This document shows positions 2,377-7,004 of a stretch of 7,031 bases of DNA, one piece after another (the first letter of the stretch is position 1; each line of letters starts with the position of its first letter). This DNA is from an uncultured archaeon. Its GTDB lineage: Archaea > Iainarchaeota > Iainarchaeia > Iainarchaeales > 0-14-0-20-30-16. The stretch is from the NCBI GenBank assembly GCA_964565125.1, contig CAZMCX010000018.1, positions 4,232 through 11,262 of the forward strand, given 5' to 3'. The translations under genes and the position numbers were made by a program. The notes beneath the pieces are model-generated. The model saw only the letters and a program-made list of their open reading frames with translations, searched no databases and was not told the origin of the DNA.

Positions 2377-3564
2377 TTATTTTATTAAAAATAATTTATC
2401 TTTTATTCTTGTCCTATCTTTCAATTTAAGACCTACTTTTTCCCCTTTCTTTCCAATCTTTATTGCTTTTCCGTCTTTTTGGATTGAAGTAATTTTCTGC
2501 CTAAAGAAAGTAGTCTTCCCCTCCGCTTGAAGTTCATCTCCAATCCTTACTTCATTTTGTAACTTTAGCTCCGCAACACCTATTTTTACATAATAATTAG
2601 AAACATTACCCAAATAGATTTTGCTTTCGGTTTCTAAAGATGCACCTTGTGTGTGTATACCTTCTTTTCCGGGTGTTGAAAAATAAAATCCCGATGTAAA
2701 GCCCCGATTATAGACAGTACCCAATTCTTTCAGATATGCTTTCTTTTTCTTTTCAGTAAATTTTTTCTCGGCAATATCTTTCAGAGCGGATTTGTAAACT
2801 TTAGCAGTAACATAAACATATTCTGCTGGCTTTGTCCGACCTTCAATCTTCAGTGCTACTGGCCCAAGCCCAACTATTTTATCCAAAAAGCCCATTGTAC
2901 ACAGATCTTTTGAACTAAAGATCGTGTTTCCAACAACATCTAAGTTCTTATCACTTTCTTTCATATAAAATGTCCTACGGCAAACCTGGGTGCATTCTCC
3001 GTTATTTGCACTTTTATCAAAACAATTCAAACTCAAGAAGCATCGCCCAGAAATAGAAACACACATACTCCCGTGGCAAAAAACTTCAATCCCGACTTTT
3101 GTTTTTTTCTTTAACTCTTTTATGTTCTCAATAGAAAGTTCTCTTGCCAAAACAACTCTTTCAACCCCAAACATTTTTTCAATCTGTTCTACGGCTAAGC
3201 TATTACTTATAGACATTTGAGTGCTTACATGTATTGGCAACTTTCTTGCTTTTGCGAGTTTCATTACCGCAAGATCAGAACAAATTATTGCATCTACTTT
3301 TGCCTTCTTTGCTTCTGTCAAAATTTTTCCTACTTTGCCAAGCTCGTTGTCATAAACAATTGAGTTCAAAGTCAGATATGCTTTCATTTTGCTCTTATGG
3401 CAAAAATCAACTACTTTTTTTAATTCAGATAATTCAAAATTTTTTGCAAAGGCACGCAAATTAAAGTCTTTAAGCCCAAAATACACCGCATCAGCCTTAG
3501 CTCTTTTTGCGGCTTGCAAACAAGGCCAATCTCCAACACCCACAAGAACTTCTATTTTTTTCAT
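2377..3564 (-). CDS. U32 family protein (peptidase U32 / Fe-S dependent hydroxylase family)
   Basis: The N-terminus MKKIEVLVGVGDWPCLQAAKRAKADAVYFG is typical of U32. EVFCHGSMCVSISGRCFLS (aa 160-178, nt 3031-3087) matches the U32 signature E-x-F-x-H-G-[SA]-[LIVM]-C-x4-G-x-C-x-[LIVM]-S as I recall it. Further Cys residues lie at 181, 191 and 195. A C-terminal beta-barrel-like tail is present (IGDELQAEGKTTFFRQKITSIQKDGKAIK). GGAG (3575..3572) lies 7 nt upstream of the ATG. Confidence 0.9.
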   Translation of the reverse strand: MKKIEVLVGVGDWPCLQAAKRAKADAVYFGLKDFNLRAFAKNFELSELKKVVDFCHKSKMKAYLTLNSIVYDNELGKVGKILTEAKKAKVDAIICSDLAVMKLAKARKLPIHVSTQMSISNSLAVEQIEKMFGVERVVLARELSIENIKELKKKTKVGIEVFCHGSMCVSISGRCFLSLNCFDKSANNGECTQVCRRTFYMKESDKNLDVVGNTIFSSKDLCTMGFLDKIVGLGPVALKIEGRTKPAEYVYVTAKVYKSALKDIAEKKFTEKKKKAYLKELGTVYNRGFTSGFYFSTPGKEGIHTQGASLETESKIYLGNVSNYYVKIGVAELKLQNEVRIGDELQAEGKTTFFRQKITSIQKDGKAIKIGKKGEKVGLKLKDRTRIKDKLFLIK

Positions 3565-3684: not shown

Positions 3685-4740
3685 ATGGACTACAAAAACC
3701 TTGTTGAAAAAAACATCTATTTTGTTGAACCAGACGAGTTTTTATCTAAAATAATAACTAAACTAAAAAACGAAAAAGCAGTATTTGTAAAAGACAAAAC
3801 CAGGTTTTATGGGGCAATTTCAAAAAAGAGCTTTATGTTATTAGGGGCAGACCTCTCAAAAATAAAGGTAAAAAACATTGCAAAAAGTGTTCCAGAACTA
3901 AACAAAAAAACTACTCATCAGGCAATGGTGGAAGCATTTGTTGAATCTAATTTAGAAAAACTACCATATTTTGAAAACAAAGACATTATTGGATACATTT
4001 CAAGAAACAAAGTTTTAGAAAACATAGTCTTACCAGAACTAAATGTTACCGTAGAAGAGGTAATGTCAAAAAATATTATTTTCATAAATATAAATGATAA
4101 CATAGCACAAGTTTTGGCATTATTTAAAGAGCATGGAATAAAAAAATTAGTTGCTCTAGATAATGGAGAATTAGCTGGAGTTATAACAATCACAAACATT
4201 TTCAATTATTTTGTAAGCGGAGATAGAATAAATTTAGACAACTTAAGAAACACAAAAGTAAAAAATGTAATGAAAGAAAATATAATTTCAATGGGGCCAA
4301 ACAAGCACATATCAGATGCAATAAAAAAACTAACTGCTGGAAAAACTTCCTCATTAGTTGTACACGAAAACAGAGACATAAAAGGAATTTTAACAAAAAC
4401 AGATATCCTAGAAAAATATTTAGCAACACAAAAGAAACAAAACTTTTCAGTTCAAATAACCTCAAAATTAGATAAACTTCCTACTGATATAATTAACAAG
4501 AAAGTAGAACAGTTAAGTAAATTCTTCAGAGATGACGAAGAGATTCACATCTTTGTACATTTAACACTAGGAAACGAGAAATACAAAGGGTCTCCATTAG
4601 TTCATTGTAGATTGAGAATTGTAAGCCCCAGAAATAGTGAAAACATTTCTGTAGAAGGCTGGGGCCTAGATCAAGCAATTGAGCTTGCAATACAAAAAGT
4701 AAAAAGAAGAATAGTAAAAGAAAGGGACACTTTTTATTAA
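3685..4740 (+). CDS. CBS domain protein (four CBS motifs, two Bateman pairs) with a C-terminal HPF/RaiA-like domain
   Basis: Four CBS-like units at about aa 2-55, 60-114, 121-176 and 190-247. Example: VEEVMSKNIIFININDNIAQVLALFKEHGIKKLVALDNGELAGVITITNIF. The C-terminal aa 253-346 show a beta-alpha-beta-beta-beta-alpha pattern resembling HPF/YfiA. A strong SD lies upstream. Confidence 0.85.
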   Translation: MDYKNLVEKNIYFVEPDEFLSKIITKLKNEKAVFVKDKTRFYGAISKKSFMLLGADLSKIKVKNIAKSVPELNKKTTHQAMVEAFVESNLEKLPYFENKDIIGYISRNKVLENIVLPELNVTVEEVMSKNIIFININDNIAQVLALFKEHGIKKLVALDNGELAGVITITNIFNYFVSGDRINLDNLRNTKVKNVMKENIISMGPNKHISDAIKKLTAGKTSSLVVHENRDIKGILTKTDILEKYLATQKKQNFSVQITSKLDKLPTDIINKKVEQLSKFFRDDEEIHIFVHLTLGNEKYKGSPLVHCRLRIVSPRNSENISVEGWGLDQAIELAIQKVKRRIVKERDTFY

Positions 4741-4845: not shown

Positions 4846-6273
4846 TTACATATTAGATAAAGTTGGTCTTAACATAATTCTTTGTGGGCTTGAGTTCCCA
4901 ATTTTTAGAACAATATCATTAGGATCAATTACATTAATCTGGGCAGACTTATATTTCTGCAAATTATCATTTAGGTCTGCAGCATCTGTTGCAGAGATTG
5001 CAAAATAACAATTAAAAGAAAGCAAAGAGTTTGTTATTTCATTTTGAATAGAGTTTGTTGACTTAGGACAAAATTTCCATCCATCAGTCAAAACAACACA
5101 GACATTATCTACAGATCCTAACAGGCTTAAAATATTCTGAACTATCAATGCTTTTTCTACATCATTTCCAGTTATTGTAATCAAGGTAATTTTTCCAATT
5201 TTATTGGCCACAACTTTCTGAACACTTATTACATCTACCTTTCCGACAAATAAATTAGGATACATTAGATTCAAAGTCTGTGCCATTCTTTTTGCAAGGT
5301 AAATATCATATTCTTTTAACTGTTCATCAGGGCTCACTTTCTGGATTGCTGAAATTAGGTCTGTTATTTTTTCTGGATTGGATTCATATGCCCTCTTAAA
5401 AATTTCTTTATATTCTTTTACGATTCCAAATAATTCACAAAAACTATCAATAGAAATAAGTGATAAATCAACATGCAAATCAGAATTTTCAGAGCCATCA
5501 TACATCAAGTTCTCTATTGGAAATCCTGTTGGTTCTGAATTTGAGTTAAAAGCTTTTACTTCTTTGGGGTGCGGGTTCGCAGACTTAAGGCCAGAAAAAA
5601 TATTCTCAAAATCAAATACAATTACAGGTATTGCACTTAATGAAAACTCTTCTATAAAATCATAGAGCATCTTTTTTTGATTTTCTTTTGCCCCAAATAT
5701 CATTGTTTTTCTAAATGCGTCTAATTCATCAGATGAAAACTCTTCGGAAGATTTATATTTCCCAAAAGAAATCATATGCCCAAAGTTAAGCCTTACATCG
5801 TCTATTTTTTGTAATTCTTCTGGCCTCCTTAAAGTTTTAAAAATATTTAAAGGGTTTATGAAAAACATATTTTGTATTTCTTTACTTGATTCATGCAAAT
5901 CCGTTATTTTTATGTCATAAGTATCTGCAATATCTAAAACTATTTTTCTGGTTTTCGCCAACATTTGTATTTGTTTAGTTATCTCTCGATCCATTTCAAC
6001 TTTACCAACATCAATAATTGTAGAAGGCACAGTTAAACAGAAAAACTTTCTAGTACTTTTTGAATTATGCATTAAGTATAGCATATTGTCTTTGGGCAAA
6101 GTTTCTGCAAATGATTCTAAATCTCCATCTGCAGATCCAACATAAACAACATTTAAAACAAGAGATTTTTTATCAGAACTATATAGTTCGGACAAGATAA
6201 AACTATCTAAAATAGACACTTTAAGATCATGTTGGTCATAGATTCCTTGAAATAATACTGCCCACTCTGCCAT
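4846..6273 (-). CDS. hypothetical protein; HerA/FtsK-superfamily (DUF87-like) fold suspected, with degenerate Walker A/B (putative pseudo-ATPase)
   Basis: Long clean ORF. Three segments line up by eye with the HerA P-loop, Walker B and Arg-finger/QRP blocks but lack the catalytic residues: MIFGAKENQKKMLYDFIEEFSLSAIPVIVFDFENIFSGL, VCVVLTDGWKFCP and FAISATDAADLNDNL. The ORF-track start is a GTG at 6282. I prefer the ATG at 6273, which lies 27 nt downstream of the start of TTTATATA (6300..6293) with no SD, i.e. leaderless-like. Confidence 0.7.
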   Translation of the reverse strand: MAEWAVLFQGIYDQHDLKVSILDSFILSELYSSDKKSLVLNVVYVGSADGDLESFAETLPKDNMLYLMHNSKSTRKFFCLTVPSTIIDVGKVEMDREITKQIQMLAKTRKIVLDIADTYDIKITDLHESSKEIQNMFFINPLNIFKTLRRPEELQKIDDVRLNFGHMISFGKYKSSEEFSSDELDAFRKTMIFGAKENQKKMLYDFIEEFSLSAIPVIVFDFENIFSGLKSANPHPKEVKAFNSNSEPTGFPIENLMYDGSENSDLHVDLSLISIDSFCELFGIVKEYKEIFKRAYESNPEKITDLISAIQKVSPDEQLKEYDIYLAKRMAQTLNLMYPNLFVGKVDVISVQKVVANKIGKITLITITGNDVEKALIVQNILSLLGSVDNVCVVLTDGWKFCPKSTNSIQNEITNSLLSFNCYFAISATDAADLNDNLQKYKSAQINVIDPNDIVLKIGNSSPQRIMLRPTLSNM

Positions 6274-6282
6274 ACAATTCAC

Positions 6283-6345
6283 TCAAAAATCTTATATAAA
6301 TATAGGACTAGCAATTATATACTTTACTAATTTATATATTTTATA
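6283..6345. promoter_or_regulatory. divergent promoter region between the 475-aa gene (-) and the basic-protein gene (+)
   Basis: Three T/A octamers: TTTATATA on the minus strand (6300..6293), ATTATATA (6314-6321) and TTTATATA (6331-6338). Neither gene has an SD, and both ATGs lie within about 15-30 nt of a box. Confidence 0.45.
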
Positions 6346-6348
6346 GTG

Positions 6349-6852
6349 ATGTTTATGACTCCAAAAGAAAGAAAGGTAGACCATTTATCAGGACAAAATA
6401 AACCACATAGTACTGGCTATAACCCAAAAAATCCACAAAATCATAACAGGGCCTGGCAACAATACGCAAGTACAAAAAATAAAGGACCAACATTAGGTGA
6501 AAAAATTAAAAGGCTAACTGCATATTTTGAAAAAAAAAGGATTGCAAGAATGAGGCCTGAAGAAAGAGAATTATTTTCAGCATTAACAAGATCAAAAGAA
6601 AGATATACCGATTTACAAAGAATAGTTAAAAAAATTAAGGTAGAATATGCAAGAGAAATTACCGCTTGGAGAAGAAAAAGACAAGCAAAAGGTTCAGATT
6701 TTACTGAGGCAGACAGACAAATGGAAGAACAAAGCAAAAAACAATGGAAAGACTGGCTAGAAAGACACGAAGATGCCTTGCCACAAATAAAGCAGGATTA
6801 CAACACCGCATTAAACCTTTGGAAAGGGCGTAAACTTCTGAGAAAAGCCTAG
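6349..6852 (+). CDS. hypothetical small, highly basic, Trp-containing protein (about 165 aa)
   Basis: Uninterrupted ORF with non-random composition. By hand count, 41 of 165 residues from the M at 6355 are Lys+Arg, and there are 5 Trp. Helical heptad-like stretches occur, e.g. RLTAYFEKKRIARMRPEERELFSALTRSKERYTDLQRIVKKIKVEYAREITAWRRKRQ. Start is ambiguous: GTG 6346, ATG 6349 or ATG 6355. A T-rich tract follows the TAG stop. Confidence 0.6.
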   Translation: MFMTPKERKVDHLSGQNKPHSTGYNPKNPQNHNRAWQQYASTKNKGPTLGEKIKRLTAYFEKKRIARMRPEERELFSALTRSKERYTDLQRIVKKIKVEYAREITAWRRKRQAKGSDFTEADRQMEEQSKKQWKDWLERHEDALPQIKQDYNTALNLWKGRKLLRKA

Positions 6853-6895: not shown

Positions 6896-6929
6896 CATTT
6901 TCCTTAGAGTAATATTTAGAATAAGGTCT

Positions 6930-7002
6930 AGTCCGATAGTGTAGGGGTCTATCACTCGGGGCTTTGAACCCCGAGACCGGAGTTCGAATCTCCGTCGGAC
7001 TA
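6930..7002 (+). tRNA. tRNA-Gln (anticodon TTG), archaeal type
   Basis: Hand-folded cloverleaf. Acceptor stem AGTCCGA (6930-6936) pairs with TCGGACT (6995-7001). D stem is GTG/CAC with a GG-containing loop. Anticodon stem CGGGG (6957-6961) pairs with CCCCG (6969-6973). Anticodon loop is CTTTGAA with anticodon TTG at 6964-6966. T arm is CGGAG-TTCGAAT-CTCCG. Discriminator is A7002. There is no encoded CCA and no intron. The A1:U72 first pair is characteristic of archaeal tRNA-Gln (bacterial tRNA-Gln has U1:A72). Confidence 0.9.
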
Positions 7003-7004
7003 TT

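Follow-up and report, generated by a model that had tools for sequence, protein, structure and literature searches.

Does a gene whose product recalls the HerA/FtsK translocases in spacing and hydrophobic pattern, and in which every catalytic ATPase motif appears to be replaced, encode a pseudo-ATPase, or is the resemblance a coincidence of by-eye alignment? The question is raised by a minus-strand open reading frame (ORF) at positions 4846 to 6273 of a 7,031-nucleotide stretch of DNA from an uncultured archaeon of the Iainarchaeota (GenBank assembly GCA_964565125.1, contig CAZMCX010000018.1, positions 4,232 to 11,262), the whole of which we refer to as the window. A sequence-only reading had proposed that the product, hereafter the target, is a catalytically dead paralogue of a hexameric translocase, and all four of the peptides that it quoted proved to match exactly in both residue and nucleotide positions. 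Both the sequence profiles and the predicted structure support an origin of the target among the hexameric translocases of the HerA clade, and the explanation that we favour, with some reserve, is that the gene belongs to a previously unannotated HerA-derived family and encodes a non-catalytic structural subunit that serves as a coiled-coil platform. The ATG at 6273, giving a protein of 475 amino acids, was the start called by the sequence-only reading, and it is favoured because the orthologues (88, 81, 65 and 62% identical, each starting with MAEW or MADW) and the family N-terminus begin there.

Used on its own, the target sequence gave no significant match in Pfam, NCBIfam, PHROGs, PADLOC or the PDB sequences, and weak single-sequence matches to P4Ha_N, DUF3201 and fructokinase were discarded as noise. 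Because the single sequence matches nothing, the by-eye alignment could not be confirmed from the target protein alone. A word-indexed homologue search reached five proteins, or 11 with a profile, and the remaining homologues were supplied by an exhaustive phmmer search of 1.84 billion representatives (50%-identity clusters) with the target protein as query. This gave 162 matching clusters at E <= 1e-3 and 111 at E <= 1e-10, and among the matches listed most were 480-510 amino acids long and aligned end to end at 21-31% identity. We conclude from the 162 matches, and from the near-full length of most of those listed, that this is a real and fairly diverse family. In what follows, the profile and the column statistics are based on 125 members, the motif scan on 154 and the Pfam scan on 93.

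When the family profile was compared with all PDB sequences, the best match was Sulfolobus solfataricus HerA (SsoHerA, 4d2i; E 6.1e-7), with profile positions 167-467 aligning with SsoHerA residues 112-409, and the second was Escherichia coli YjgR (E 1e-6). Weaker matches, down to an E-value of 0.035, were to Sir2-associated HerA, Deinococcus radiodurans HerA, DptH, TdpA, another HerA and EccC, which are without exception FtsK-HerA-type proteins. Pfam PF01935 (DUF87, 'Helicase HerA central domain') was matched individually by 22 of the 93 members scanned (best E 1e-7). An AlphaFold2 model built from the 125-sequence alignment had a mean predicted local distance difference test (pLDDT) score of 92.7, a model from five sequences (pLDDT 49) being unusable. 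It can be seen from the Foldseek comparison of this model with the PDB that HerA chains occupy ranks 1-27 throughout (E 2.5e-12 to 8e-7, probability 1.0), followed by VirB4, TrwB, the STIV2 packaging ATPase B204 and EccC. In the viral structure library BFVD the top match was a HerA-like (YjgR-type) phage protein, with a template modelling (TM) score of 0.55 and a root mean square deviation of 4.1 Å over 383 columns. The target is not closer to VirB4, TrwB or FtsK than to HerA; VirB4 and TrwB do not enter the ranking before place 28, with E-values of 1e-6 or weaker, and were not among the matches of the family profile to the PDB, where only EccC, weakly matched, stands for the branches other than HerA. 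The profile search of the PDB, PF01935 and Foldseek, which are the kinds of check that the sequence-only reading had proposed, therefore agree on a HerA relationship, and we consider the fold of the target to be almost certainly HerA-derived. The residues that the family has in common with HerA are structural ones, namely those of the strands marked by 'LG' and 'FD' and the glycine in the GVG strand.

Three of the four blocks that had been matched to HerA by eye were reproduced by alignment with the family hidden Markov model (HMM). The fourth, LHVDLSLISIDSF, had been placed where HerA proteins have the 'hhDLS' strand, and this assignment did not hold: the peptide precedes a helical insertion, and in the alignments to both 4d2i and 8wiv the 'hhDLS' strand aligns instead with GKITLITITGND, which is matched to GKVNVVSLTQLDED of 4d2i ('VNVVSLTQL') and to ESISIFDLSGMP of 8wiv ('ISIFDLSGM').

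The target comprises an N-terminal domain, a flexible linker and a HerA-type core with its insertion (coordinates of all features are listed in Table 1). A predicted TM score of 0.69 for the whole model, set against a mean pLDDT of 92.7, suggests two domains whose relative orientation is uncertain. The N-terminal domain profile (residues 1-150) matched nothing in the PDB or Pfam; the domain is beta-rich with an added long helix, as compared with the HAS beta-barrel. Within the core, the insertion is modelled as helices at 275-281, 286-296, 303-311 and 321-337 with pLDDT above 90, and it aligns with SsoHerA residues ~213-300, so that the HerA helical bundle is retained. Downstream of strand beta2, the equivalent of 'SVLIFDY' in HerA, the GEY of HerA is lost and the target reads ENIF, while F220 is kept in 71% and D221 in 81% of members. 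The family-specific C-terminal motif overlaps the last strand of the model (464-468). The protein is soluble and acidic, with an isoelectric point (pI) of about 5 overall and for both domains.

The loss of catalytic motifs is seen across the family. In the HMM alignment to 4d2i, the family sequence 'lviggseeeRkh' aligns with HerA AILAATGSGKSN (Walker A, K154), 'alivlPEaekllpk' with IIAVIEEAHVFLSK (Walker B, E355-E356) and 'seygvGfalsaeheidLs' with RKFGVGLTIVSQRPKGLD (R381, Q392 and R393). A regular-expression scan of the 154 sequences found no GxxxxGK[ST] at the P-loop position; matches to the Walker A expression in nine members are located elsewhere, mostly at the 'LG' motif near residue 171, and were rejected as P-loops. 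The target segment aligned with Walker A reads GAKENQKK. Its Q199 stands at the Walker lysine position, where Arg is found in 98 of the 125 members, and its K200 at that of the Mg-ligand Ser/Thr, a column occupied by Lys in 36, Leu in 30 and Arg and Ile in 11 each. T396 and D397 lie at the positions of SsoHerA E355 and E356: the first acidic column of Walker B has Pro in 65 members and Glu in 27, and the catalytic Glu column has Glu in 34, Asn in 20, Lys in 18 and Asp and Gln in 11 each, the five closest orthologues having D, D, N, S and N. R142, R381 and Q392-R393 of SsoHerA, located here by alignment, we take to be arginine finger and sensor residues. In the R142 column, Lys (38), Arg (27) and Ser (21) are commonest and the target has K189; the R381, Q392 and R393 columns are variable, and in that region only G423 and D433-L434 are conserved.

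The 'ENQKK' loop of the target itself varies in sequence among the five closest orthologues, and a two-residue deletion is present in the close orthologue P0003. In the model, strand 189-194 passes almost directly into helix 196-212, and thus no phosphate-binding loop is left. The target is an especially degenerate member of the family, because the Arg that most members keep at the Walker lysine position has also been lost. The column statistics, the lack of a P-loop motif and the loop deletion bear out the proposal that every catalytic ATPase motif has been replaced and, judged from these residues, the target very probably does not hydrolyse ATP.

At the site of the former P-loop (residues 194-204, nucleotides ~5662-5694), most of the family has the motif GGxx[ED]R[KL]HxxH, with His frequent at +2 and +5, and the window's clade has lost it. 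In the main clade this motif may be the remnant of an anion- or metal-binding site.

The sequence-only reading had suggested that orthologues be aligned, conserved degenerate motifs pointing to a selected pseudo-enzyme and variable ones to decay. We found that the degenerate motif positions are variable, and therefore not under motif-specific constraint, yet the protein as a whole is under purifying selection. The ratio of nonsynonymous to synonymous substitution rates (dN/dS) is 0.06 against the 88%-identical orthologue in locus L001 and 0.21 and 0.24 in two other pairwise comparisons, the value against the 65%-identical orthologue being about 0.2. The family also has residues of its own: G171 and E208 are invariant, and W4, P141, G250, P252, R329, G360, R465, R469 and P470 are more than 90% conserved, with R329 kept in 99% of members and G360 in 93%. 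In the C-terminal motif YRxxLRPxLS, R465 is present in 117, R469 in 124, P470 in 113 and S473 in 111 of the 125 members. We conclude from the strong purifying selection and these invariant residues that the target is a selected pseudo-enzyme, and not a gene in decay.

Named members of the family come only from metagenome-assembled genomes (MAGs) of Iainarchaeota, which are placed within the DPANN kingdom Nanobdellati, and Micrarchaeota. The closest orthologue is from a MAG labelled 'Candidatus ainarchaeum sp.', and 13 more distant loci are from MAGs labelled 'Candidatus Iainarchaeum archaeon', 'uncultured archaeon' or 'archaeon'; the GTDB survey that gave 13 loci is motif-biased and no census, because its locus pattern was built from a six-sequence subset. 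In the sources seen, members are labelled just 'hypothetical protein' and have no precomputed Pfam domain. Longer members (563-685 amino acids) were rejected as informative fusions, the extra part consisting of Pro/Lys-rich tails. A pattern scan of IMG/VR revealed no viral or mobile relatives, and there was no PHROG match. Literature searches for inactive HerA in DPANN archaea returned nothing relevant, a mention of 'HerA' in PMC7055376 being a false match to the author name 'Heras'.

To place the gene in its context, 30 loci (the window and 29 related ones, designated L with a number) were compared through an all-against-all BLAST of the ORFs together with HMM searches. The sequence-only reading had noted no adjacent NurA, Mre11/Rad50, Sir2 or nuclease partner; likewise, NurA, Mre11, Rad50, Sir2 or another nuclease was found neither in the window nor within ~6-10 kb in the 29 related loci. 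There was no PADLOC match to a defence system and no effector neighbour, and no second HerA-like gene lies within ~10 kb in the 30 loci. The neighbours are housekeeping genes, and the context is chromosomal.

The most consistent neighbour, found by HMM in 21 loci, encodes an acidic protein of 165-218 amino acids (pI ~4.8), which we call c1. Its small helical domain at the N-terminus (SGI...IxxTLxxIGL) is followed by an acidic linker and then by a C-terminal coiled coil, the end of which reads KILETxRxIL. The c1 gene is the immediate divergent neighbour of the family member in L014 and the main Iainarchaeota clade; in the window's clade it lies 2-4.5 kb upstream of the target gene, beyond the window (as in L001 and at L003:3591-4154), and it also adjoins a very distant family member in L015. 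A second family, c2, of basic coiled-coil proteins with the motifs LNSSILxISQKMKYLVRNEKILGRNLIVLNKK and ELKYVIDSINPLEF, is present in 15 loci, in 13 of which it is convergent downstream of the pseudo-ATPase gene. Profiles of c1 and c2 gave generic coiled-coil matches only when compared with the PDB and Pfam.

Genes of DNA metabolism are also found nearby. In the main Iainarchaeota clade c2 lies between the pseudo-ATPase gene and PolB, which is thus two genes downstream, in 11 loci. In Micrarchaeota, ScpA (the SMC kleisin) adjoins the family member (L006:9554-10354, L008:9565-10341, L010:9531-10238); the two genes share a strand in one genome and converge in the others. RNase HII, RtcB, a HIT protein and the CBS-HPF gene described below are nearby in the window's clade, RNase HII also in L014. 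Upstream of the Micrarchaeota members, there is in addition a conserved stretch that translates to EWGLVATSFVIVGLLGLGRFLHCP within dissimilar, spurious-looking ORFs. This could be a conserved non-coding element; Rfam at its gathering threshold found nothing in the stretch of L008 or L010.

The family, then, has kept the HerA RecA-like core with its helical-bundle insertion and has lost Walker A, the Mg-binding Ser/Thr, the Walker B acidic pair with the catalytic Glu, and the arginines. In the explanation that we favour, the target would no longer bind or hydrolyse ATP, and its part would be that of a structural, non-enzymatic subunit. It would probably still assemble as a ring through the conserved core, as HerA does, although for ring assembly taken by itself we regard the case as evenly balanced. 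It would serve as an assembly platform for small coiled-coil proteins, among which c1 is the leading candidate; a physical partnership between the target and c1, suggested by gene order, we would rate at about half confidence. The PolB, ScpA and RNase HII neighbours in three lineages would give a weak hint at a role in chromosome or replication housekeeping.

Several observations weigh against this explanation. The Arg at the Walker lysine position in 78% of the family makes a non-canonical nucleotide site conceivable, though the target does not have it. The c1 gene lies outside the window, none was found in the Micrarchaeota loci, and the c1 protein matches generic coiled coils only. The acidity of the target does not favour direct DNA binding, and the proximity of PolB, ScpA and RNase HII may be plain housekeeping synteny.

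Of the other potential explanations, the one that survives best is that the target forms a passive nucleic-acid-binding ring, a translocase repurposed without its motor in replication, repair or chromosome segregation. The ancestors of the family were DNA translocases, three of its conserved residues are the arginines R329, R465 and R469, and genes of DNA metabolism accompany it in three lineages; moreover, in Haloferax a protein with a HerA domain is found at midcell (bioRxiv 10.64898/2026.07.16.738847). However, a pI of about 5, both overall and in each domain, speaks against nucleic-acid binding, and the DNA-metabolism genes are housekeeping neighbours whose strand varies and which differ from lineage to lineage. 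We regard a passive ring as unlikely.

The gene order of the main clade suggests a different role. There, in up to nine loci, c1, the pseudo-ATPase and c2 come after a giant protein (940 to more than 2400 amino acids) and a tight stack of five small multi-pass membrane proteins. Among the fetched main-clade loci, nine have the giant protein together with the first two genes for membrane proteins, and the remaining families of membrane proteins occur in five and six; by family, c4 and c5 are present in nine loci, c9 in six and c18 in five. Neither the giant protein nor the five membrane proteins matched Pfam or another known family; the cluster may encode an uncharacterised envelope structure. 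The target could then be an inactive VirB4/CedB-like cytoplasmic component of a membrane or cell-surface apparatus encoded by this cluster, in keeping with the shared gene order in up to nine loci and with the presence of VirB4 and TrwB among the Foldseek matches. Set against this, no such cluster lies within ~10 kb of the family member in the window's clade, L014 or Micrarchaeota, it is transcribed separately and is convergent to c1, none of its genes matches a known family, and HerA structures clearly outrank VirB4, so that we find this role quite unlikely. More doubtful again is the proposal of a lineage-specific apparatus that spans the envelope and is built from the pseudo-ATPase, c1, c2, the giant protein and the five membrane proteins, its ancestor being a HerA/VirB4-type machine whose motor was abandoned; if true, it might be used for cell-cell contact, or for exchange of DNA or metabolites, in these ultra-small archaea.

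A mixed ring had been among the suggestions of the sequence-only reading. In such a ring the target would be the regulatory or stator partner of an active HerA-family ATPase whose gene lies elsewhere in the genome, much as F1-alpha and the delta-prime subunit of clamp loaders are non-catalytic, and we find this very unlikely. The core with which HerA makes its subunit interfaces is retained, and nothing that we found speaks directly for a mixed ring; the 30 loci contain no second HerA-like gene within ~10 kb, and the arginine finger position is not conserved, so that a neighbouring site would not be activated in the usual way.

Hardly any more can be said for the target as a nucleoside triphosphatase with a non-canonical site, built from K200/K201 and D397 here or from the Arg at the Walker lysine position in most members, and we hold it to be most improbable. 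That Arg is preceded by GG in the family, a glycine-rich relic ('GGSIGER', for example) persists in some members, and D397 of the target aligns with the catalytic Glu. Against such a site, there is no Ser/Thr for Mg2+, acidic residues lie within the loop, and the loop is shortened, helical in the model and different in length and sequence among close orthologues; the catalytic Glu column is E, N, K, D, Q or S, and the target has Q and not R at 199. Finally, chance resemblance or a decaying HerA pseudogene, which the failure of the single sequence to match Pfam, NCBIfam or the PDB might have suggested, is excluded by the profile E-values, the fold match, the dN/dS of 0.06 and the 162 clusters with most listed matches near full length.

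The surroundings of the gene in the window (G+C content ~30%) allow some further observations. Between the target gene and its divergent neighbour, a TATA-like box, TTTATATA, ends ~24 nucleotides upstream of the ATG at 6273, and we infer that the spacer is a putative promoter region for both genes. The divergent gene, c8, encodes a protein of pI ~10 that has no family match and counts 168 amino acids from the GTG at 6346; its L001 orthologue is called at 163 amino acids from MTPKER, equivalent to an ATG at 6355, and conservation of the gene at this site is confined to the closest relatives, L001-L005. The possibility that c8 is a diverged c1 or c2 was rejected (hhalign probability ~1%, BLASTP E 6.7). 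It is a possible lineage-specific partner of the target, its membership of the system being uncertain.

On the other side of the target gene, the product of 3685-4740 has 351 amino acids with a CBS region (Pfam 8e-28) followed by a C-terminal S30AE/RaiA-HPF domain (Ribosomal_S30AE 3e-6), and the gene is convergent to the target gene in the window's clade and in L014. Its architecture matches that of the 'Hib' proteins, SriA-RaiA/HPF fusions that are archaeal ribosome hibernation factors (bioRxiv 10.64898/2026.01.19.700200). The 326-amino-acid ORF starts 4 nucleotides after the MBL-fold gene and has no family match; we take it to be a lineage-specific insertion because the U32 peptidase and MBL-fold genes abut directly in the syntenic loci L001 and L003.

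Table 1. Features of the target protein, of the window and of related loci. Positions are those of the window unless a locus (L) is named.
Feature	Residues	Positions	Strand	Remarks
Target ORF (HerA-like putative pseudo-ATPase)		4846-6282 from GTG, 4846-6273 from ATG	minus	stop codon 4846-4848
N-terminal domain	1-146	5836-6273	minus	seven or eight beta strands and a long helix (AlphaFold model); family motif GPW
Flexible linker	147-167	5773-5835	minus	pLDDT <50 at residues 150-164
HerA-type RecA-like core with helical insertion	168-475	4849-5772	minus	profile alignment, Foldseek, BFVD match
Strand beta1 and Walker A relic KTMIFGAKENQKK	189-201	5671-5709	minus	HMM alignment; Q199 at Walker lysine position, K189 at SsoHerA Arg142 position
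Strand beta2 PVIVFDF	216-222	5608-5628	minus	HMM alignment; equivalent of HerA 'SVLIFDY'
Four-helix insertion	275-337	5263-5451	minus	equivalent of HerA helical bundle; contains R329
Strand GKITLITITGND	360-371	5161-5196	minus	equivalent of HerA 'hhhDLSxL' strand
Walker B relic VCVVLTDGWK	391-400	5074-5103	minus	HMM alignment
Relic of R381 / Q392-R393 region SLLSFNCYFAISATDAADL	416-434	4972-5028	minus	HMM alignment
C-terminal motif SPQRIMLRPTLS		4855-4890	minus	consensus K-x-Y-R-x-x-L-R-P-x-L-S; family-specific
LemA		79-639	minus	
MBL-fold hydrolase		730-1383	plus	
Unannotated 326-amino-acid ORF		1388-2368	plus	
U32 peptidase		2377-3564	minus	
CBS-domain and S30AE/HPF-domain protein		3685-4740	plus	
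AT-rich divergent intergenic region, 81 nucleotides		6274-6354		TATA-like boxes on both strands; sequence read directly
Basic coiled-coil protein (c8), 168 amino acids		6346-6852	plus	divergent from target
tRNA-Gln, anticodon TTG		6929-7003	plus	ARAGORN and Rfam; downstream of basic coiled-coil gene
c1, examples		L001:7650-8147; L012:7204-7803; L014:7379-7912	plus; minus; minus	18 further loci
c2, examples		L012:9530-10015; L019:7690-8178; L014:5176-5658	minus	and others
Giant protein and membrane cluster		L012:98-7164; L019:145-5272; L027:56-5328	plus	membrane proteins of ~128, 106, 85, 105 and 130 amino acids
Stretch translating to EWGLVATSFVIVGLLGLGRFLHCP		L008:7718-8008; L010:7145-7555; L006:7475-8122	plus	

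Few of the conserved, lineage-defining proteins of DPANN archaea have an assigned role, and this family is found in two phyla under strong selection. HerA ancestry without a nucleotide site offers a testable handle on it: does the protein form a ring, what is its ligand, and are the coiled-coil proteins its partners? The family is useful for the study of pseudo-ATPase evolution, and could point to an unrecognised chromosome- or envelope-associated complex in organisms that are hard to grow.

Among known systems, archaeal HerA (4d2i, and the Thermococcus kodakarensis HerA-NurA complex 9x1l) gives the best profile and structure match to the target family. The two share a RecA-like core, a helical bundle, an 'FD' strand after alpha1, a 'DLS-type' strand, a length of ~500 amino acids and a separate N-terminal domain. 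Unlike archaeal HerA, the target family is without Walker A and B motifs, a conserved catalytic Glu and a conserved arginine finger or sensor; it does not neighbour NurA, Mre11 or Rad50 in the 30 loci, the profile of its N-terminal domain does not reveal a HAS barrel, and it has its own YRxxLRPxLS motif. The YjgR/DUF853-type proteins (11kk; Klebsiella phage A0A248XCZ8) are the second-best profile match and give the best superposition of the core; however, YjgR has a Walker A sequence, GTGKT, where the target family has no P-loop motif, and Pfam HerA_C was matched by only one of the 93 members.

The HerA proteins of defence systems (Sir2-HerA, DUF4297-HerA, TdpA and DptH) have the same fold (Foldseek E 1e-10 to 1e-7) and are weak profile matches. 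They are active ATPases paired with an effector and, to go by the PDB titles, were solved with a partner such as Sir2, DUF4297 or TdpB, whereas the target has neither an effector neighbour nor a PADLOC match and stands in a housekeeping chromosomal context. VirB4, TrwB and CedB belong to the same superfamily, with Foldseek matches (E 1e-6 to 1e-4) that are clearly weaker than those to HerA. In one clade small membrane proteins beside the gene recall these systems, although the adjacency is not family-wide, and VirB4, TrwB and CedB are active ATPases, as the target, from its residues, is predicted not to be.

A functional analogy, and no more than that, can be drawn with EccC and EssC of type VII secretion, in which degenerate FtsK-like domains that have lost catalysis regulate the machine and bind substrate; the profile and fold matches to EccC are weak. 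In EccC/EssC the degenerate domains sit beside an active domain in a multi-domain protein and still bind nucleotide, whereas the target is free-standing and its P-loop is wholly absent. The principle of a dead superfamily domain is thus not new, since degenerate domains are known elsewhere, as in EccC; the target would offer a clear case from nature of a ring-translocase fold that stands alone and has been kept purely for a non-catalytic role.

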